DNA of 20,975 nt from the IMG/VR virus record IMGVR_UViG_2728369187_000006, positions 1 to 20,975 of that record. The stretch is one strand, 5' to 3'. How positions within the stretch are numbered: the first letter of the stretch is position 1; every line of letters starts with the position of its first letter. The notes beneath the pieces were generated by a model. That model made no database searches, was not told the DNA's origin, and saw only the letters and a list, made by a program, of their open reading frames with translations. The translations under genes were made by a program, and so were the position numbers. Of the stretch, positions 5,299-15,646 are shown piece after piece. The DNA comes from a virus (lineage: Duplodnaviria; Heunggongvirae; Uroviricota; Caudoviricetes).

Positions 5299-5625
5299 TT
5301 ACTCCTTAGAGCCACCAAACTTGTTACCGATTACTCTCATTGCAGCCCCACGAATTGCATCGACCCCGATCAGCCCCACCCCACCACCAATGGCAACAGA
5401 AAGCGATTTAGGCCATCCGACATACTCAAGAGCGGATGCAAAAGTCAGCGTCAGAGCACCACAGAGCAAAATCTCGAGCGTTTTTCGTTTCCAGCCACCA
5501 CCACTGCCAAAATAGGCAATACGTAAACCAGCCATAACGATCGACATAATCACTGCGCCCAGCGGTGTGTCTCCACGCCACCAGCTCTGGACCAACTCCA
5601 GCCAAGTATTTGGGTTATGAGGCAT
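5299..5625 (-). CDS. Putative holin (class I-like, three hydrophobic segments)
   Basis: 108-aa ORF with three predicted TM segments immediately upstream of the endolysin. Not lambda S by sequence; called on position and topology. Confidence 0.62.
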   Translation of the reverse strand: MPHNPNTWLELVQSWWRGDTPLGAVIMSIVMAGLRIAYFGSGGGWKRKTLEILLCGALTLTFASALEYVGWPKSLSVAIGGGVGLIGVDAIRGAAMRVIGNKFGGSKE

Positions 5626-5904: not shown

Positions 5905-7695
5905 ATGAGCACAGAATTAAAACTAAAGAAAATTATGGCATCGTCTAAAATTGAGCCATTTATTAGACATATTCGTTTTCCTTTTTTTAAAAACCTTGCA
6001 GAGGGTAGCAAGATTGATTTTGAGTATCCAATTACAGCATTAGTTGGTCAAAACGGAACCAATAAAAGTTCTGTTTTAAGAGCCCTATTCGGTTCTCCAA
6101 ACAACTATTCTCTGGGTAGCTTATGGTTTTCTACAGATGTAGATGAGATTAAAGATGGTGGTCGTTCTAGATTTATTTATGGATATTATGACAAAGCTAC
6201 TGATTCAATTGTTGAAGTAATTAAAACTCGAATCTCTAAAGAAAATGATCCTGATTACTGGGAACCATCCAGACCATTAAAATCCGACAACATGGCTCCA
6301 ATGCCTAGTACAAAAATCTCAACCAATCAACTAAGGACTAGGTGGAAAGCTATTGACAAAAATGTAATATATTTAGATTTCAGAGCAACTATCAGTGCAT
6401 TTGATAAGTTCTTTTATCACTCTGATTTTCATACATACCCTAAGAAAGATTATCTTAGAAAACGCAGTCAGATGCTAAAAGACATTATAGATAACGATCT
6501 TAAAAAATATCAACCTCATAAAGGAAAAAAAGACAAGCTATTTGTTAACACTTTATTAGAAAAAAGTAAGGTAGAGGCAATCAGCAAGATTTTAGGTCGC
6601 AAATACACAAGCATCCGCCTTATTGAACATAGCTTATTCACTAATGACAAAGCTCCCACAATTATTCTTCAATCAGAAAACTTAAAATATTCTGAAGCTT
6701 TCGCAGGCAGTGGGGAATTTGCTGTATCTATATTAGTGCATAAACTAATGGATAGCCCTGATGCATCTTTAATTCTGCTAGATGAACCTGAAGTATCACT
6801 TCACCCTTCTGCTCAATGTCAATTGATGGAATTTTTATCAGAACAAGCACTTAAAAAGAAACATCAAATTGTCATATCCACACATTCATCAACAATAGTA
6901 AAAGACTTGCCTAAAAATGCCATAAAATTATTCTGTCTGAATGATAAAATAGGAAAGGTTGATGTTCTTCAAAATGTCAGCCCAGAAGAATCTTTCTTTA
7001 TTCTTGGTGAACGCATTGATAAAAGAACCGTTATTGTAGAAGATCGGTTAGCGAAGAGGTTTGTAGAAAAGGCGCTTAAAGCGGGTGGTGAAGCATTATT
7101 AAACTCCTTCGAAGTAAAACATGTTCCTGGAGGAGCGGGAAGTATTCTTCAAACTTTGGCTGTGCCTTTATGTGTTGCCAATGTTAAAAACGTTATTTTC
7201 TTATTAGATGGTGACCAATCGAGAACTGATGATTATCCAACTTCTGATTCCATACCAGAAAATCAAAACACAAACCTTCAAAACATCATAAAAGAAATAA
7301 CCAATCAAGATATAAAATTTAGTTGTGATGGTTCTAATGGCTCATCAAATAACAATCAAAAATACAAAATGCAAAGAAATTTTATCGATTTCATCCACGA
7401 TAAAATTGCTTTTCTTCCTGTTTATACTCCTGAAGCATTTCTTATTGAGAATGTTCATGGTGATTATAAAGAATATAAAGATCAAATCCCCAAAAACATT
7501 CAAGATGCTAAAGAAATCACCAAAGAACTTTGTAAGTTAGACACAGGGTTGGAAAACGTTACCAGTGACGATATCTTTGAAACACAAATCAGAATTCTTA
7601 ATAAAATACCAAATAATCATGAAGTGTTAACAAAAACTCGAGAGTTGCTGCAAATCTTTTTAGATAATGATACTATCAGACCAAGAGTGAGGTAG
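5905..7695 (+). CDS. OLD-family-like ABC ATPase with putative C-terminal TOPRIM nuclease domain (cargo gene 1)
   Basis: 596 aa. Variant Walker A (ALVGQNGTNKSSVLRAL), Walker B with LHP (SLILLDEPEVSLHPSAQ) typical of AAA_21/OLD ATPases, then TOPRIM-like motifs (TVIVEDRLAKRFVE, glycine-rich PGGAGS, DxD-like FLLDGDQ). AT-rich. Family assignment is by eye, not by HMM. Start may instead be ATG 5935. Confidence 0.7.
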   Translation: MSTELKLKKIMASSKIEPFIRHIRFPFFKNLAEGSKIDFEYPITALVGQNGTNKSSVLRALFGSPNNYSLGSLWFSTDVDEIKDGGRSRFIYGYYDKATDSIVEVIKTRISKENDPDYWEPSRPLKSDNMAPMPSTKISTNQLRTRWKAIDKNVIYLDFRATISAFDKFFYHSDFHTYPKKDYLRKRSQMLKDIIDNDLKKYQPHKGKKDKLFVNTLLEKSKVEAISKILGRKYTSIRLIEHSLFTNDKAPTIILQSENLKYSEAFAGSGEFAVSILVHKLMDSPDASLILLDEPEVSLHPSAQCQLMEFLSEQALKKKHQIVISTHSSTIVKDLPKNAIKLFCLNDKIGKVDVLQNVSPEESFFILGERIDKRTVIVEDRLAKRFVEKALKAGGEALLNSFEVKHVPGGAGSILQTLAVPLCVANVKNVIFLLDGDQSRTDDYPTSDSIPENQNTNLQNIIKEITNQDIKFSCDGSNGSSNNNQKYKMQRNFIDFIHDKIAFLPVYTPEAFLIENVHGDYKEYKDQIPKNIQDAKEITKELCKLDTGLENVTSDDIFETQIRILNKIPNNHEVLTKTRELLQIFLDNDTIRPRVR

Positions 7696-7698
7696 ATA

Positions 7699-8739
7699 AT
7701 GGCTAAAAAGATACACGTTTACGATTTCTTTTCCGGCTGCGGCGGAACCAGTGTAGGCCTAAAAGCGGTGGGAATGGAAATTATTTTCGGTTTAGATATT
7801 GATCTAGACTCCGCTAACACCTTTAAAATGAATAATCCATTTGCACATTTTATCAATGGTGATATCAAAGATACACACGTTGAGGAAATTAAGCATCTGG
7901 TTTGTGCGTCAACACAAAGCAAAGCTCTAACCCTATTTTGTGGTTGTGCTCCATGTCAACCATTCTCGAAACAAAATAAAATACGGAACGAGGATGATCC
8001 GAGAAAAGATCTGCTTACTGAGTTTGCACGGTTTGTCTCTTATTATACGCCAGACTTTGTACTGGTAGAGAATGTACCAGGAATCCAAAATGTCGATATT
8101 AACAATGGAAATTTCCAGAAATTTCTTGAGGTTTTAGCACATCATCACTACAACGTTGATTTTGGTGTGATTCCTGCGTTGTGGTTCGGGGTTCCTCAAA
8201 CACGTGAACGTTTTGTTTTACTGGCGTCAAAACACACGAATATTAAGCTTCCATCACAAACTCATGATGGATTAAAAACTCCGTATGCAACTGTCAGAGA
8301 CTGGATCGGCGGATTACCTCCTATTGCTGCCGGTGAAACTCATAAAGATGTTATGGATCATACAGCAGCCAAACTATCTGATCTAAATATTAAACGTATT
8401 AAAGCGACTCCTGAAGGAAAAGGTAGAGAATCTTGGCCTGAAGAACTTATACTAAAATGCCATAAAAAATATAAAGGGCATACTGATGTTTATGGACGGC
8501 TTTCTTGGGACAAACCAGCAAGTGGATTAACAACTAGATGTATAAGCTATTCGAATGGACGTTTCGGACATCCAGAGCAAGATAGGGCTATTTCTGTTAG
8601 AGAGGCTGCGTTATTACAGACTTTCCCATTAGACTATTCCTTCACAGGCTCTTTAGTCTCGAAAGCCAAACAGATAGGGAATGCAGTCCCTCCCAAGATG
8701 GCTGAAGCTCTTGGAAGGGCTATCATCGCATCACTTTAA
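7699..8739 (+). CDS. DNA (cytosine-5)-methyltransferase (cargo gene 2)
   Basis: 346 aa with canonical m5C motifs: I (FSGCGG), IV (PCQPFS), VI (ENVPG), VIII (QTRERF), X (GNAVPP). Starts 4 nt after the upstream stop, with GAGG inside the upstream gene end, so likely translationally coupled. Confidence 0.9.
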   Translation: MAKKIHVYDFFSGCGGTSVGLKAVGMEIIFGLDIDLDSANTFKMNNPFAHFINGDIKDTHVEEIKHLVCASTQSKALTLFCGCAPCQPFSKQNKIRNEDDPRKDLLTEFARFVSYYTPDFVLVENVPGIQNVDINNGNFQKFLEVLAHHHYNVDFGVIPALWFGVPQTRERFVLLASKHTNIKLPSQTHDGLKTPYATVRDWIGGLPPIAAGETHKDVMDHTAAKLSDLNIKRIKATPEGKGRESWPEELILKCHKKYKGHTDVYGRLSWDKPASGLTTRCISYSNGRFGHPEQDRAISVREAALLQTFPLDYSFTGSLVSKAKQIGNAVPPKMAEALGRAIIASL

Positions 8740-8749
8740 AAGCGGAGCC

Positions 8750-9106
8750 CTAGAGGGCTTCGCCTAACAATAATAGAATACCTGATATAAACCCTATAGC
8801 TCCCTGAAGCTCTTTTCTAATTGCTCCATCAGAGCATTTTCTTTTCTTAGCAATGGTGCGTAATGAGATACCAATCACAAAATGAGCAATGATCAGCTCA
8901 TATTCTTCTGGTTTATACTTCCGCAGGCGGGCGACACAGCCATCAATCATGATGCCTTCATCATCATCGCACTGAATCCGGGACTTTCTGCCATGAGGTA
9001 AAAGCCCCTTGAAGCCAGCGGCTACCGGTTGCCAATCCACACCACTGTTCTCTGCCGCAGCCCACGCTCCCCAACGGTCTAATACTTCATACATATCACA
9101 CATCAA
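8750..9106 (-). CDS. Late-gene antiterminator Q-like protein
   Basis: 118 aa with the VLDRWGAWAA...WQPVAAGFKGLL...RIQCDDDEG motif recalled from the prophage antiterminator-Q family. Sits at the expected position after the nin-like region. Confidence 0.7.
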   Translation of the reverse strand: MMCDMYEVLDRWGAWAAAENSGVDWQPVAAGFKGLLPHGRKSRIQCDDDEGIMIDGCVARLRKYKPEEYELIIAHFVIGISLRTIAKKRKCSDGAIRKELQGAIGFISGILLLLGEAL

Positions 9107-9120
9107 CTTTCTCCACCAAA

Positions 9121-10116
9121 TCAGGCTAGCACACCAATTGCCAACGCACGGTCGATAAAACGAAATATCAGCTCCAGCTGGGAGCCATACTTCTCTTCAA
9201 ATGCCACGGTATCCGCATGCAGCTCGTCGTGATGCTTTCTGCACAAAGGCAACACAAAGAGGTCATGCGCTTTTGTACCCATTCCACCCTGACCGTGGCC
9301 TATCAGGTGGTGGGGATCATCAGCAGGTTTTCCACAACATGCGCACGGCTGCGTCTTAACCCAGCGCGTGTACTTTTCATTAACCCAGCGGCGACGTTTT
9401 GGGCGTAACATAAAAGACTCCGGCGACTCCGGATCCACTTTCAGCGCCAGCACCTTTTTCGCCTTATCCTGGATGATGCTGGTGGCAGGAACCGAAGGCA
9501 CCAGGTCACTTTCCCGGGTGACAGATGGCACAACAGGCTTCGGTAATCTCAGTGCCTTACGGGCTGCACTTTCCGGTAAGGCATCCGCCAGATCATTACG
9601 AACCAGCCACCAGCACAGTTCCGGCATTGTCACAACGTGACTATCATCAAAACCGAGATCCCGACGCACAACAGACAACACCCAGCGGGCACAGTTATCC
9701 GTTGCCATTGATTCCAGCCGTTCCGTGAACTGATCGCGCAGCTGGTTATCACAGTGCCAGCACAGACGGATTGCGCCCGGAGCGTGTCGCATTGTGGTAA
9801 TGTTCTCGCTGTGCCAGTCGGAATGAGGCCACTGACAGCCCTTTTCACGAAGTAACCAGCTTTCAAGACATTCCACGCCACCAGCACGACGGATCACTGC
9901 CTCATTGCGGAACACGGCCCGAACGGCAGGATCATCCACCAGCGGTTGTGATGCCGCCGGAACTGCACCACTGGCGAAAGATGAATAACGTTCCGGCTCA
10001 GGCTCCAGCAGGACACGCCCCTGCATAAACAGGGGCATCAACTCTGAACCTGGCCTGAACAATACGATCCCCATACGCGGGGCAACTTCAGGGGTCAGTA
10101 GTGCTCTCACGGTCAC
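9121..10116 (-). CDS. DUF968-family protein (YdfU-like), C-terminal Cys/His-rich putative nuclease-like domain
   Basis: 331 aa with C-terminal CACCGK...HHLIGHGQGG...CRKHHDELH. Resembles DUF968 proteins of E. coli lambdoid prophages from memory. Confidence 0.7.
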   Translation of the reverse strand: MTVRALLTPEVAPRMGIVLFRPGSELMPLFMQGRVLLEPEPERYSSFASGAVPAASQPLVDDPAVRAVFRNEAVIRRAGGVECLESWLLREKGCQWPHSDWHSENITTMRHAPGAIRLCWHCDNQLRDQFTERLESMATDNCARWVLSVVRRDLGFDDSHVVTMPELCWWLVRNDLADALPESAARKALRLPKPVVPSVTRESDLVPSVPATSIIQDKAKKVLALKVDPESPESFMLRPKRRRWVNEKYTRWVKTQPCACCGKPADDPHHLIGHGQGGMGTKAHDLFVLPLCRKHHDELHADTVAFEEKYGSQLELIFRFIDRALAIGVLA

Positions 10117-10117
10117 C

Positions 10118-10927
10118 TCAATGAACGGTATCGAGCAGCTTTAACAGCTCAGGGAATCGGGATTCGAAGAAATGCGGCTGCGTCTCGCGCGGATTTGCGG
10201 GACTGGTGATATTCTTGCCGAACATGCAGCCTTTCGCTGTCAGCGACCAGAATTTTTTGATGTTGTTAATCGCGGTACGGCTGTATCGTTCGCGCTGCTC
10301 GACGATCCCCAGCTTCACCATCTGGTGATATGCCTGATTAGCTGTCAGGCGGATACCATACTGCTTCAGCAGTGCACTCAGTGACAGCGTGGGGCGGCTT
10401 GAGCCATCAGGCGCGTCAGCAGGAGCATCAATGGCATAGCGCGGTGCCAGATTCGGTAAGCCAACAGCCTCCTGGAGTTTCTGACAGGCACCAAGCACTG
10501 AAGAGTTAGACAGGTTTAATTCCCGGCGCATAAAGTCCAGCAGAATCACACCAGCCTGCATCTTGTCAGCAGCCTGTCCGGATAATTTTTCCGGTGCGCT
10601 GGTTACCATGTCGAAAGTACGGATCACCTTCAGATGGAATGACGGGCTGATCCACATTGCATAGGCATACACCAGTTCTTTGCAGACATACGTCCCCTGG
10701 TTATTTCCGCCATTAATGACGCTAACTTGTTGATTTTGTTCCAGAGGCGGAATTCCACCCTCGGTGAAAAGTTGTTCAATCAATTCACAGGTTTGCTTAT
10801 TGGAGAGCCAGTATTTCGGGCGGTTTTTTTGTTCTCCCCCGGCTGCCCTGTGCAGATCGTTCAGGCTGTAACGCCCATAAGCATCACGACGAACTTCAAT
10901 ACCATCAATGACCATCAGATTATTCAT
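10118..10927 (-). CDS. KilA-N domain protein (putative antirepressor-like)
   Basis: N-terminus (MNNLMVIDGIEVRRDAYGRYSLNDLHRAAGGEQKNRPKYWL) matches the KilA-N domain pattern; 269 aa. Confidence 0.75.
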   Translation of the reverse strand: MNNLMVIDGIEVRRDAYGRYSLNDLHRAAGGEQKNRPKYWLSNKQTCELIEQLFTEGGIPPLEQNQQVSVINGGNNQGTYVCKELVYAYAMWISPSFHLKVIRTFDMVTSAPEKLSGQAADKMQAGVILLDFMRRELNLSNSSVLGACQKLQEAVGLPNLAPRYAIDAPADAPDGSSRPTLSLSALLKQYGIRLTANQAYHQMVKLGIVEQRERYSRTAINNIKKFWSLTAKGCMFGKNITSPANPRETQPHFFESRFPELLKLLDTVH

Positions 10928-10946
10928 ACTTCGTTTCTCCTCTTAA

Positions 10947-11336
10947 TCAGGCGGCTGCACCCGCCGTTTTCTCGTACTTACTGATAGTGATCTCGACCTT
11001 CCCTCCCGGGATAACCGGTCCCCACTCCACCAGCATTCTTTTCACCTGACTGTCGTCTTCCCACACACCCGCGTGGGTCAGGGCGTCAAACAGCGCCTTG
11101 TTATAGTTGTCCAGATCGCGGATCCGGTTATCCGGAGGAAACAACACGATCTCCACTGAAGCAGGTGCCGACGTTGGTTTCGGCAGACGACGTAACTGCT
11201 CAACTATTGCTGCGCACGCCGCGCTCTGGAATTTTCGCCCCGCCGCGCTTATCAGACTCTTACCAGCAAACGCCCCTTTGTTGGGGTGTCGCCAGTACGT
11301 GTTCACGCTGGGCGGGAAAGGCAAGATCAGCTTCAT
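10947..11336 (-). CDS. rusA: Holliday junction resolvase RusA
   Basis: 129 aa, MKLILPFPPSVNTYWR...DLDNYNKALFDALTHAGVWEDDSQV is the RusA signature; typical nin-region gene. Confidence 0.88.
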   Translation of the reverse strand: MKLILPFPPSVNTYWRHPNKGAFAGKSLISAAGRKFQSAACAAIVEQLRRLPKPTSAPASVEIVLFPPDNRIRDLDNYNKALFDALTHAGVWEDDSQVKRMLVEWGPVIPGGKVEITISKYEKTAGAAA

Positions 11337-11659
11337 ACTTTCAGGCCTCTCTCATGTAACCAGTGGGCTGCACGCAGCCTGGCGTTTTCCTCACCGGCAA
11401 GCAGTGCGCGGATAATCCCGACCGCCTCGCTGTCGTCGTCCTTCACCGCGGTATGAAGCGTTATCCCCCGGGCCACGCCACGCTTTATCGTGATGACGCC
11501 TTTTTTCTCCAGTGCACGAAGATGCTCTACCGCTGCATTCACTGAACGGTATCCCAGCATGGTTGCCACCTCCTGATTGGTTGGCGGAAAGCCACGCTCT
11601 TTCTGGTAAGAAATCAGCATATCCAGCACCTGCTGCTGGCATTGAGTTAACGTCGTCAT
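11333..11659 (-). CDS. LexA DNA-binding-domain-like protein lacking the S24 peptidase domain
   Basis: Start taken at the internal ATG 11659..11657, which overlaps the upstream TGA as ATGA. LTQCQQQVLDMLISYQKERGFPPTNQEVATMLGYRSVNAAVEHLRALEKKGVI resembles the LexA N-terminal winged helix. Only about 108 aa, with no Ala-Gly/Ser/Lys protease module. Confidence 0.65.
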   Translation of the reverse strand: MTTLTQCQQQVLDMLISYQKERGFPPTNQEVATMLGYRSVNAAVEHLRALEKKGVITIKRGVARGITLHTAVKDDDSEAVGIIRALLAGEENARLRAAHWLHERGLKV

Positions 11660-12309
11660 GCCGCCATCTCCCTGACCAGTTTTTCCGCCTGCTGGCAAAC
11701 CTGCACCAGAAAGGCTTCACCACATGCCTCAAGTTCATCGCGCCCGATGTAGCTGATTGCCGGTCCCTTCCAGGTCTTGTCGAAAACAGCAATAGCACCA
11801 GCGAAGAAAGCGCCTGTCGGCACCTGCTTCTCATCCTTCGGGATAAACCAGGCAGGCAGTTCAAAACCAATACGCCCGCGAATAAAAGCAATATGGTCCG
11901 CATCTTCCGGCCACCACACTTCGCTGGTGGCAGCTTTGATCAGGAAAACATAGCGCCCGCCCTTATCACGCATGGCACTGGCATGTTTCATGATGTAACG
12001 CATGCCGGTGATGTATTGCCCCTCATGCTGACTGGCGCGGCTGTATGGGGGATTACCAAAGGCAGCACCTTTAAGCTCCGCAAGACGTTCTGACCAGTCA
12101 TGCGCCAGCGCGTTATCTTCCGCCGTGTAATACGCGGCACATTTGGCGTTATCACCGTCAGTAAACAGATCCAGAACAAACGGGCCAAACAGGGTGTTAA
12201 TTCCCCAGAAAATGTTGTCCGGCGTGCGCCACTGATCGCCCACTTCCTTCAGTTCATGGGCTGGTTTGTTCCGCAGTTCCACCAGCGCCTGGCAATATTT
12301 ATTACTCAT
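11656..12309 (-). CDS. Phage N6-adenine DNA methyltransferase (Dam-like)
   Basis: NPPY motif (AAFGNPPYSRA) and overall resemblance to phage Dam MTases. Start at ATG 12309..12307 overlaps the upstream stop (TAATG); the ORF-track start at 12342 is less likely. Confidence 0.8.
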   Translation of the reverse strand: MSNKYCQALVELRNKPAHELKEVGDQWRTPDNIFWGINTLFGPFVLDLFTDGDNAKCAAYYTAEDNALAHDWSERLAELKGAAFGNPPYSRASQHEGQYITGMRYIMKHASAMRDKGGRYVFLIKAATSEVWWPEDADHIAFIRGRIGFELPAWFIPKDEKQVPTGAFFAGAIAVFDKTWKGPAISYIGRDELEACGEAFLVQVCQQAEKLVREMAA

Positions 12310-12803
12310 TAAGCCCCCACGTAATTCCCTGACAGATACCACTCTTCACCCGATGCAGCGCGCTTGCTGCTTTTCCGTAAGCACCGCTCACGACGCGCCA
12401 GAAAATTGTTTCGTTCTGGCTGGGAGTGGCTTTCACGGAATGCCGCCATCCACACGGTTGCAGCACGACGGTATAAGCCCCTGGACTCCAGTTCTTCAGC
12501 CTGGCGGGTCAGGCACAAAATCACCCGGTGATCGTTAGTGCCGACATAGAAATTGCGCACAGGTCTGGTTTCACGAACTGGTTGTGGTTCCGGCTCCTGC
12601 GCTCTCTCAGTCAGGCGCGGGAAATGTCTGCGTGTATCCCCTTCACAACGGTGAGCCACACGCCCACTCTGACGTAACTTGCTTGCTGACTGCAGAACGC
12701 GCTGCCGTGAGTAACCTGCAAAAGCATCCGCAATGTCTCCGGAAGTACACCCCGGATGGGCTTCAATGAATTTCTGAACGTCATTTAACAGACTCATGAT
12801 CAC
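12309..12803 (-). CDS. Hypothetical regulator with PerC-like C-terminal motif
   Basis: 164 aa. C-terminal AEELESRGLYRRAATVWMAAF...RRERCLRK resembles PerC-family activators from memory. Occupies the slot where lambda has the helicase loader P. ATGA overlap with the upstream initiator gene. Confidence 0.5.
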   Translation of the reverse strand: MIMSLLNDVQKFIEAHPGCTSGDIADAFAGYSRQRVLQSASKLRQSGRVAHRCEGDTRRHFPRLTERAQEPEPQPVRETRPVRNFYVGTNDHRVILCLTRQAEELESRGLYRRAATVWMAAFRESHSQPERNNFLARRERCLRKSSKRAASGEEWYLSGNYVGA

Positions 12804-13741
12804 CCCCTGAATCCTGCCGGGATCTGGCTGTAGTCCACGTTGTCGTAACTGGATTTGAAGTACGGGTCTTCGCGTTTTTCGGTGTACGTGCTTACGGACG
12901 GCGATAAGCGCAGGGAAAGCTCATCCCATTTTTCCCGCAGCTTCGACGGGCTGAGCACGTTACGGCACCAGAACGGATCGCGGCTGACGCGGCTGTACAT
13001 CTCGCAGATTTGTTTGTGAGTACGACCATCCTGCACACACATCAGGCGAATTTCGTTTGCCCAGGCTGTCCAGTTCGGTTCTTTGGGACGAACCACCTCG
13101 CCGTCACATTCGGCAGCCTGCTCGTACAGGGCGATGATTTTTTTCCAGAGCCACTGTGCGCAGGTCAAATCATCCTGCGTTCCCCACTGGCGCTTTTTAG
13201 GGCTGAATACAACCGCATCAGGATGGCGAGTTAAAAAATCCTGTTCAGCCGTCTGCGTGTCCGGTTGCGAAGCGTCCGGACGAGAAGGTTTTTTATCTGA
13301 CGGATCATGTTTTGATTTTACTGACGGATCCCCGCCAGATTCTGACGGGTGAAAACCCGCTTTTTTGCCAGATTTCGACGCATCAAATTTTGACGGGTCA
13401 GATTTTGATGCGTCAGATTTTGACGGGTCAGAATCTGACAGTTGAGAAAATGCCGCTGCCTGAAGCTTCACAACGTTAAGCTGATAAACATTCGACGCAT
13501 TGCGGTTACCCTGGCGACGCGCCTTACGCGTTAACCAGCCTTCTGCTTCCAGCCGTGCGATAGCCGTTCTGACGGTACTCATCCCCGCGCCAATCTGACG
13601 GGCAATGGTTTCAATTGATGGCCAGCACACACCTTCGTCATTACTGAAATCAGCCAGGCGGGCCATAATTGCCACGCTGGATAATTTCATGCCTGACGCT
13701 GCGCAACCATCCCATACATAGCCGGTTAATTTAGTGCTCAT
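12800..13741 (-). CDS. Replication initiator protein (O-like; N-terminal HTH, internal iteron-encoded linker)
   Basis: 313 aa. N-terminal winged-helix-like segment (VAIMARLADFSNDEGVCWPSIETIARQIGAGMSTVRTAIARLEAEGWL). Central repetitive linker (DPSKSDASKSDPSKFDASKS) is encoded by the iteron repeats, as in lambda O. Confidence 0.75.
   Translation of the reverse strand: MSTKLTGYVWDGCAASGMKLSSVAIMARLADFSNDEGVCWPSIETIARQIGAGMSTVRTAIARLEAEGWLTRKARRQGNRNASNVYQLNVVKLQAAAFSQLSDSDPSKSDASKSDPSKFDASKSGKKAGFHPSESGGDPSVKSKHDPSDKKPSRPDASQPDTQTAEQDFLTRHPDAVVFSPKKRQWGTQDDLTCAQWLWKKIIALYEQAAECDGEVVRPKEPNWTAWANEIRLMCVQDGRTHKQICEMYSRVSRDPFWCRNVLSPSKLREKWDELSLRLSPSVSTYTEKREDPYFKSSYDNVDYSQIPAGFRG
13290..13440. repeat. 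Iteron-like direct repeats (candidate phage origin) inside the initiator gene
   Basis: About eight copies of a (T/A)YTGACGG-like unit at 14-24 bp spacing (for example tctgacgg at 13296, 13341; tttgacgg at 13389, 13419), read directly. Confidence 0.65.
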
Positions 13742-14971: not shown

Positions 14972-15646
14972 ATGAAAACAATCCATGACATCCGGCGGTC
15001 TAACGCCAGAAAACTGAGAGATGGTGTTGGCGGGAATTCTTCCTTTGCCACTATGATTGATCGCGAGCCAACCCAGACCAGCAGGTTTATGGGAGATGGT
15101 GCTACTAAAAATATCGGTGACAGCATGGCACGACACATCGAAAAATGTTTCGACCTGCCTGTCGGATGGCTCGATCAAGAACACCAGACAACCAACATCA
15201 CAAAAAAACCTGATGTTTCAATCACTAATAAACAAATCACATTAGTCCCTGTCATATCATGGGTACAGGCCGGAGCATGGAAAGAAGTTGGATATTCTGA
15301 GGTTGATTTGAGCACAGCAGAAACGTATCCCTGCCCTGTACCCTGTGGGGAAATGACTTATATCTTGCGGGTGATAGGTGATTCAATGATTGATGAGTAC
15401 CGCCCGGGAGACATGATTTTTGTCGATCCTGAAGTACCTGCCTGCCACGGTGACGACGTTATTGCATTGATGCACGATACAGGTGAAACCACCTTCAAAA
15501 GGTTGATAGAAGATGGGACACAGCGTTATCTCAAAGCGTTAAACCCAAACTGGCCTGAGCCTTACATTAAGATCAACGGTAATTGCTCTATAATTGGAAC
15601 TGTGATTTTCTCAGGAAAACCAAGAAGATACAAAATCAAAGCCTAA
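14972..15646 (+). CDS. cI: cI-like repressor (N-terminal DNA-binding domain plus C-terminal S24 LexA-like autopeptidase)
   Basis: 224 aa. C-terminal S24 features: Ala-Gly cleavage-site candidate (WVQAGAWK), Ser nucleophile context (VIGDSM), downstream Lys. Divergent from the cro-like gene across the operator region. Confidence 0.85.
   Translation: MKTIHDIRRSNARKLRDGVGGNSSFATMIDREPTQTSRFMGDGATKNIGDSMARHIEKCFDLPVGWLDQEHQTTNITKKPDVSITNKQITLVPVISWVQAGAWKEVGYSEVDLSTAETYPCPVPCGEMTYILRVIGDSMIDEYRPGDMIFVDPEVPACHGDDVIALMHDTGETTFKRLIEDGTQRYLKALNPNWPEPYIKINGNCSIIGTVIFSGKPRRYKIKA

Follow-up and report, generated by a model that had tools for sequence, protein, structure and literature searches.

A stand-alone LexA DNA-binding domain protein in the early operon of a lambdoid prophage: a candidate RecA-insensitive occupant of LexA-type boxes

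A protein of 108 aa encoded on the minus strand of a stretch of tailed-phage DNA (20,975 nucleotides, positions 1 to 20,975 of IMG/VR virus record IMGVR_UViG_2728369187_000006; the whole stretch is referred to as the window) was found to carry the DNA-binding domain (DBD) of LexA and, in place of the S24 autoprotease and dimerization domain, a family-specific tail of ~35 aa that is predicted to fold into two helices. Judged by its profile matches, this LexA-DBD protein is a member of PF01726 and PHROG 362 and not a LexA, as it has neither the S24 domain nor the cleavage site. It is quite probably a DNA-binding regulator that is made early in lytic growth and is insensitive to RecA. With four of the five DNA-contact residues of LexA kept in its sequence, a role as an uncleavable occupant of LexA-type boxes is the favoured reading, and the full chain of steps set out below, with SOS boxes as the target, is given a probability of about 0.4. 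The gene is ordinary and of a known kind, very common in prophages, intact and conserved; at the level of sequence the finding is already known, having been annotated since orf42 of phage SfV and named in RefSeq, Pfam and PHROGs.

Domain content, predicted structure and conservation

The gene and the parts of its product were assigned as follows.

11333..11659 (stop codon included), minus strand: gene for the stand-alone LexA-DBD protein, 108 aa (open reading frame (ORF) list and sequence, PF01726, PHROG 362, pN/pS)
11453..11659, minus strand: winged helix-turn-helix, residues 1–69, with helices 6–22, 28–35 and 40–52 and wing strands 56–58 and 66–68 (predicted model)
11504..11545, minus strand: recognition helix, residues 39–52, S-V-N-A-A-V-E-H-L-R-A-L-E-K (alignments to E. 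coli LexA)
11351..11437, minus strand: tail, residues 75–103, with helices 75–88 and 93–103, proposed dimerization element (AlphaFold2 predicted local distance difference test (pLDDT) ~85)

The ORF comprises 327 bp on the minus strand and runs from the ATG at 11659–11657 to the TGA at 11335–11333. A preliminary description of this DNA had described a protein that resembles the LexA N-terminal winged helix but stops after ~108 aa, without the S24 module, and had named PF01726 (LexA_DNA_bind) as the profile to be searched; this profile was clearly matched over its full length (residues 1–65 on model positions 1–65 of 65, E 2.9e-19, 69 bits against a cutoff of 23.7), and Peptidase_S24 (PF00717) gave no match to the protein by profile search. 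PHROG 362 ('transcriptional repressor') was matched by residues 1–108 on profile positions 1–106 of 106 (E 1.6e-59), and of the NCBIfam lexA equivalog TIGR00498 only positions 1–91 of 203 were aligned, with a score of 70.5 that lies under the cutoff of 110.95. Searched with phmmer against the PDB, the protein retrieved the DNA-binding domain of E. coli LexA (1LEA, E 6.5e-16); by BLASTP it showed 43% identity to E. coli LexA over 90 residues (E 1e-21) and ~50% within the domain proper. No PADLOC defence-system component was matched, the sole hit being a weak one of winged-helix type (CARF3, E 3.6e-4). Since the S24 autoprotease is absent, RecA-stimulated self-cleavage is impossible, and the word 'uncleavable' used in the preliminary description stands; there is also no space for a frameshifted protease remnant, because rusA follows the stop codon at once.

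For structural comparison, an AlphaFold2 model built from a 35-sequence family alignment (mean pLDDT 82) was used in place of the single-sequence model (pLDDT 59). The model superposes on the DNA-bound N-terminal domain of E. coli LexA (3JSO, 1LEA) at 0.9 Å over 68 residues with 50% identity, and a low-confidence linker lies between the wing and the tail helices. In the family alignment the tail is conserved across Enterobacterales subfamilies and has a hydrophobic periodicity, with Ala97 invariant and Leu101 nearly so; a tail-only profile searched against PDB and Pfam detected no homologue. The segment AVGIIRALLAGEE aligns with the hinge/cleavage region of LexA, LPLVGRVAAGEP, such that Ala88-Gly89 stands opposite Ala84-Gly85 of LexA. 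Other members of the family have AN, VG, TR, ER or DD at this dipeptide. A cleavage site at Ala88-Gly89 was considered and rejected: AVGIIRALLAGEE is not read as such because the dipeptide is unconserved and the segment is predicted helical, the pair lying inside helix 75–88 and not in a flexible loop.

Selection was estimated from 81 copies of the gene, which fall into 55 nucleotide alleles and encode 13 different proteins. Across the 55 alleles, pooled pS was 0.100 and pN 0.0055 (pN/pS 0.055), which indicates strong purifying selection; nearly all replacements were located in the tail, and the DNA-binding domain was almost invariant. Of 5426 complete E. coli genomes, 2233 (~41%) carry the gene, nearly always at an identity of at least 95%, and it was intact in 2222 genomes.

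Recognition helix and proposed action

In LexA, DNA is contacted by Ser39, Asn41, Ala42, Glu44 and Glu45 (PMC3091678). Four of these five residues are kept in the LexA-DBD protein (Ser39, Asn41, Ala42 and Glu45) and Glu44 is replaced by Val, binding to CTGT-N8-ACAG itself being only predicted; Arg64 and Gly65 of the LexA wing are also retained. Some sister subfamilies carry SPNAAAEHLKAL, in which only Glu44 differs from helix 3 of E. coli LexA. With E. coli LexA the phage protein thus has in common these six residues, the fold and the full PF01726 match. It differs in lacking both the S24 domain (catalytic Ser119 and Lys156) and the Ala-Gly cleavage loop, in having Val at position 44 and a new two-helix tail, and in being encoded in an early lytic operon. 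In two-hybrid systems, the LexA DBD represses an SOS operator only if the fused partner dimerizes (PMC8152094), so that the conserved amphipathic tail is a candidate for a natural dimerizer. Engineered LexA(1–87) two-hybrid fusions follow the same design of a DBD joined to a heterologous dimerizer and are not RecA-cleavable (PMC8152094); these fusions are artificial and contain the wild-type LexA helix, whereas in the LexA-DBD protein the tail would take the role of the dimerizer and the operator specificity is a prediction.

Starting from the fold, the missing protease domain, the conservation and the genomic position, a mechanism is proposed in which the timing, the dimerization, the DNA specificity and the repressing outcome are conjectural. 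Induction or infection would switch on the gene as one of the delayed-early set read from the rightward early promoter, and in the quiet lysogen its product would be absent. The amphipathic tail would supply the dimerization that LexA takes from its C-terminal domain, and the dimer would bind palindromes of CTGT-type half-sites, i.e. LexA (SOS) boxes, located outside the window. RecA* would be unable to remove the protein, the S24 domain being absent, and a RecA-proof stand-in for LexA could then restore repression at SOS-box promoters during the depletion of host LexA. It might act on SOS genes of the host, on prophage morons under SOS control or on antirepressors that LexA controls in rival prophages. 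Taken on its own, the specific choice of SOS boxes as target is, by sequence and analogy, placed somewhat below an even chance. Doubtful is the widest version, in which the RecA-proof surrogate would re-occupy SOS boxes, shut the host SOS regulon and hold morons, colicins and LexA-controlled antirepressors of rival prophages off during the phage cycle; on that version ~41% of sequenced E. coli genomes would hold a latent SOS shut-off switch.

If SOS boxes are bound, prophages induced in a large share of E. coli, Shigella and Stx-phage lysogens would play an active part in resetting the SOS response. This would bear on antibiotic-stress mutagenesis, on the dynamics of Stx-phage induction and on the competition among co-resident prophages, and the protein would be a natural counterpart of the two-hybrid design of LexA DBD and heterologous dimerizer. 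If a private operator is bound instead, the protein would join the other small accessory regulators of the nin region.

DNA target and rival explanations

Several observations weigh against a fixed SOS-box target. Position 44 is non-Glu in 35 of 35 family sequences and Glu in 12 of 13 retrieved S24-motif homologues; positions 42, 43 and 45 also vary by subfamily (SSNAVLLH in Klebsiella, SPNAATDM in Cronobacter), and the least LexA-like recognition helix belongs to the dinI-linked Klebsiella branch. On these alignments the variation of the helix looks more like diversifying specificity than like a fixed host target. Scanned for CTGT-N8-ACAG with at most one mismatch, the window gave 13 matches against 6.9 expected, none of them perfect, and no canonical SOS box was detected in it by a position weight matrix (PWM) compiled from ~26 E. 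coli SOS boxes (best site 9.5 bits, as compared with 12.7 for the weakest training box and a median maximum of 10 in shuffled sequences). Dimerization by the tail is suggested by a monomer model and a conservation pattern. Literature searches on the enterobacterial family yielded no functional, binding, oligomerization or expression study; only gp6 of GIL01 and papers that call CI repressors 'LexA family' were retrieved. In GIL01, a tectivirus of Bacillus thuringiensis, gp6 is a truncated LexA homologue that activates the late promoter P3; it is 44% identical to the DNA-binding region of host LexA, yet binds a different palindrome, GaCACAnnTGTGaC, and activates (PMC6182141).

When CTGT-Nx-ACAG was searched in the window at spacings of 0–16 in both orientations, only ACAG-N8-CTGT was enriched (3 sites against 0.28 expected, two of the three inside listed ORFs), which was not significant after 34 tests, and no repeated perfect palindromes were found in the window outside the CI/Cro operators. 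A CTG-N10-CAG pair at 10472–10487 and 10498–10513, 26 bp apart in the KilA-N gene and with AT-poor centres (PWM 5.3 and 9.5 bits), is probably a product of chance. For comparison, 80 E. coli-type, 56 Cronobacter-type and 80 Klebsiella-type loci from IMG/VR were used. Footprinting over the 80 E. coli-type loci was uninformative, the block being ~97% identical. A 98–100% identical protein was paired with varied modules, the CI of the window occurring in 25 of 80 loci and its Q (at an identity of at least 95%) in 0 of 80; this exchange of CI and Q modules around a nearly unchanged protein favours a trans-acting, host-conserved target. Within the co-inherited block, neither an intergenic gap nor a repeated palindrome is available as a private operator. 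In 78 of the 80 Klebsiella-type loci the LexA-DBD gene lies downstream of an SOS-box-bearing dinI, which speaks for a LexA-box target and, as a single lineage, counts as about one observation. Strong SOS boxes (22–26 bits), counted on the same side, are present in many E. coli-type relatives, and none of them in the window.

The nearest characterised analogue is GIL01 gp6: both are LexA DBDs without a protease that are encoded among the early genes of a temperate phage, and gp6 matches PF01726 (E 7.9e-14). BLASTP found no alignment between the two at E ≤ 100 and each resembles the LexA of its own host; therefore, on sequence comparison, they are independent captures from different host LexA lineages. 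The gp6 protein has 66 aa, is tailless and comes from a phage without Q, whereas the LexA-DBD protein has 108 aa and a conserved helical tail and belongs to a Q-controlled lambdoid phage; moreover, the site and the activator role of gp6 are experimental, whereas the LexA-DBD protein is known here from sequence. A gp6-like late-promoter palindrome was searched in the window and no candidate site was found, late control being expected from Q. A phage-specific regulator of the gp6 kind, i.e. a drifted LexA fold that would bind a non-SOS palindrome in phage or host and time one promoter on or off, is the main rival explanation, possible but rather unlikely. It would account for the family-wide replacement of Glu44 and for the variation of the recognition helix by subfamily, it has the precedent of GIL01, and, with the dimer geometry set by a new tail, the spacing of half-sites could depart from N8. 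It is weakened by the lack of a candidate operator in a co-inherited block that has neither intergenic space nor a repeated palindrome, by the variation of the CI and Q modules, so that a site there cannot be the general target, by the Q antiterminator that already serves the late genes, and by the lack of direct sequence similarity between gp6 and the LexA-DBD protein. The phage and plasmid SOS modulators DinI and GIL01 gp7 may have an effect in common with the LexA-DBD protein, a dampened or reshaped SOS response while the phage develops, but they are unrelated proteins that act by protein contact on RecA or LexA and not by DNA occupancy.

The position of the gene, always inside the replication-to-Q block of DNA-metabolism genes, translationally coupled on both sides and followed by rusA in 80 of 80 E. 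coli-type and nearly all of the 56 Cronobacter-type loci, would suit a non-transcriptional DNA-binding accessory of RusA, Dam, DUF968/HNH or the replication protein, which might for instance target or shield DNA in recombination or replication. Such a role is improbable, as overlaps are general in the operon, dam is dispensable, neither the Klebsiella branch nor SfIV has rusA, and the protein has the fold of a repressor domain that recognizes specific sequences, its base-contact residues being conserved. A dominant-negative partner of host LexA acting through mixed dimers, which the preliminary description had put forward, could draw on the shared ancestry with LexA and on the aligned hinge/cleavage segment; LexA dimerizes through its C-terminal S24 domain, however, and with this domain missing, an unrelated two-helix tail in its place and the aligned segment predicted helical, the proposal is very unlikely. 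The same alignment of Ala-Gly dipeptides could point to a decoy or trans-cleavage substrate: activated LexA or CI would cleave the protein in trans at Ala88-Gly89, or the protein would titrate RecA*. Intermolecular cleavage of LexA was reportedly described by Kim and Little in 1993; with a dipeptide that is unconserved and lies within a confidently predicted helix instead of a beta-hairpin loop, this is highly improbable. As a shortened version of a host-type gene that is carried by a mosaic prophage, the gene might finally be taken for a decaying, non-functional remnant of a captured lexA, a scarcely credible explanation that is refuted by the pN/pS of 0.055, the 2222 genomes with an intact copy and the full-length family across Enterobacterales prophages.

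Among the E. coli-type relatives, a strong SOS box was located within a CI-like repressor gene in 19 loci, ahead of the gene for a 350-aa methyltransferase downstream of Q in 16, in front of a membrane-protein moron in 3 and between RusA and KilA-N in 2; examples are found in L007 at 12651, L006 at 5095, L023 at 4330, L034 at 8765 and L014 at 12349. In the Klebsiella-type locus L088 (a type shared by L085–L164), a phage dinI at 7363–7658 (PF06183, E 2.6e-25) lies ~340 bp upstream of the LexA-DBD gene; a near-consensus SOS box, TACTGTTTATTTATACAGTA, overlaps its -10 element, and a reverse transcriptase gene (RVT_1) is located just upstream on the opposite strand. A 13-bp stem followed by a T-run at 8034–8066 of this locus falls inside the 25 aa by which the annotation extends the Klebsiella-type protein at its N terminus. 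Transcription of dinI may end at this hairpin, and the true start of the protein may be a TTG at ~8061, yielding a 109-aa form (P0259).

Operon setting, spread and neighbouring features

The surroundings of the gene were annotated as follows.

11656..12309, minus strand: upstream neighbour, phage N6-adenine methyltransferase of the Dam family (PF05869, E 1.2e-45; TIGR01712, E 1.8e-76; RefSeq gene model)
10947..11336, minus strand: downstream neighbour, RusA Holliday-junction resolvase (PF05866, E 7e-15; PHROG 34, E 8e-59)
11656..11659, minus strand: ATGA overlap of Dam stop (TGA) and LexA-DBD start (ATG), tcat on the plus strand, read directly
11333..11336, minus strand: ATGA overlap of LexA-DBD stop (TGA) and rusA start (ATG), tcat on the plus strand, read directly
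8750..13741, minus strand: early-right (nin-like) operon with replication protein, PerC-family regulator, Dam, LexA-DBD, RusA, KilA-N, DUF968/HNH and Q antiterminator (Pfam and PHROG matches)
14972..15646, plus strand: CI-type repressor with S24 autoprotease (PF00717, E 1.5e-26)
14888 and 14938: TGTAC-N7-GTACA inverted repeats between the divergent cro-side and CI genes, likely immunity operators

The prophage is of lambdoid type, with Cro and a CII-like gene on the minus strand followed by the replication-to-Q block and then by lysis, terminase and head genes, and the annotation of the operon is supported by RefSeq for a 98.8%-identical E. coli prophage. The Q antiterminator (8750–9106) matches PF06530 (E 8.8e-44). 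Since the CI-type repressor carries S24, the RecA-sensitive switch of the prophage sits there and not in the LexA-DBD protein. The start of the Dam gene is likely the ATG at 12309, which on sequence overlaps the PerC stop as TAATG. Both ATGA overlaps reported in the preliminary description were present in the sequence, and its naming of the neighbours as a Dam-like methyltransferase and rusA agrees with the PF05869, TIGR01712 and PF05866 matches. The tight coupling that it noted among Dam, LexA-DBD and RusA is not a special link: from the replication gene to rusA all junctions overlap (GTGA/ATGA, TAATG, ATGA, ATGA) and the other gaps of the operon are ≤19 bp, so that the overlaps are a property of the whole operon and not a specific tie. 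No sigma-70-like promoter was seen on the coding strand just upstream of the gene within the operon. Given its place far down the early-right operon and the lack of a promoter-like site ahead of it, the gene is probably silent in the quiet lysogen and active only after induction or infection, and any altered response of the prophage to DNA damage, as it had been suggested, would be limited.

Gene order was constant in the 80 E. coli-type loci (replication protein, PerC, (Dam), LexA-DBD, RusA, KilA-N, DUF968, (Q)), with dam absent in ~30 of these 80 near-identical loci. In the dam-less variants (L006, L034 and others, ~30 of L005–L084) the PerC stop abuts the ATG of the LexA-DBD gene, a module swap at the gene boundary. 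Cronobacter-type loci mostly have the order replication protein, (Dam), LexA-DBD, RusA, DUF968, and Klebsiella-type loci have DinI, an ORF, LexA-DBD, an ORF, DUF968 and Q, without RusA; mEp390 and SfIV agree with the replication-to-Q slot.

Phages carrying the gene include SfV (orf42, 'unknown'), SfII and mEp460 ('LexA DNA binding domain protein'), SfIV, cdtI and Ayreon, and many Stx2, Stx2c and Stx2k phages also carry it. In E. coli the RefSeq label is 'LexA family transcriptional regulator' or 'LexA family protein' (WP_000210170.1). SfV Orf42, the SfII and mEp460 proteins, PHROG 362 and WP_000210170.1 represent the same family (96–100% identity) in the same slot and are database annotations. 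Divergent full-length relatives (40–66% identity, 105–135 aa, PF01726 only) are encoded in prophages of Klebsiella, Cronobacter, Salmonella, Enterobacter, Citrobacter, Kosakonia, Atlantibacter and Hafnia, and unrelated phages of many hosts often encode a short LexA-DBD protein that stands alone, as seen in mycobacteriophage Wildcat, tectiviruses and uncultured Caudovirales. Among the matches, P0133 (222 aa), P0134 (141 aa) and other proteins matched in two stretches contain tandem LexA_DNA_bind domains in a single chain without S24 and are possible covalent 'dimers'.

A second small regulator of the operon is the PerC-family protein at 12309–12803 on the minus strand (PF06069, E 7.7e-9, ANR-like), whose N terminus is enlarged by a winged-helix-like region that gives weak MarR/BilQ matches. 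Between Q (8750–9106) and the holin gene (5299–5625), a two-gene island on the plus strand (5905–8739) resembles a defence or moron insertion. It encodes a 596-aa ATP-dependent nuclease of the OLD/ATPase-Toprim type (PADLOC HEC-04, E 1.9e-36, with GajA/PtuA-like ATPase matches) and a 346-aa Dcm-type cytosine methyltransferase (MTase_II, E 7e-91), the dcm stop being located 10 bp from the Q stop.

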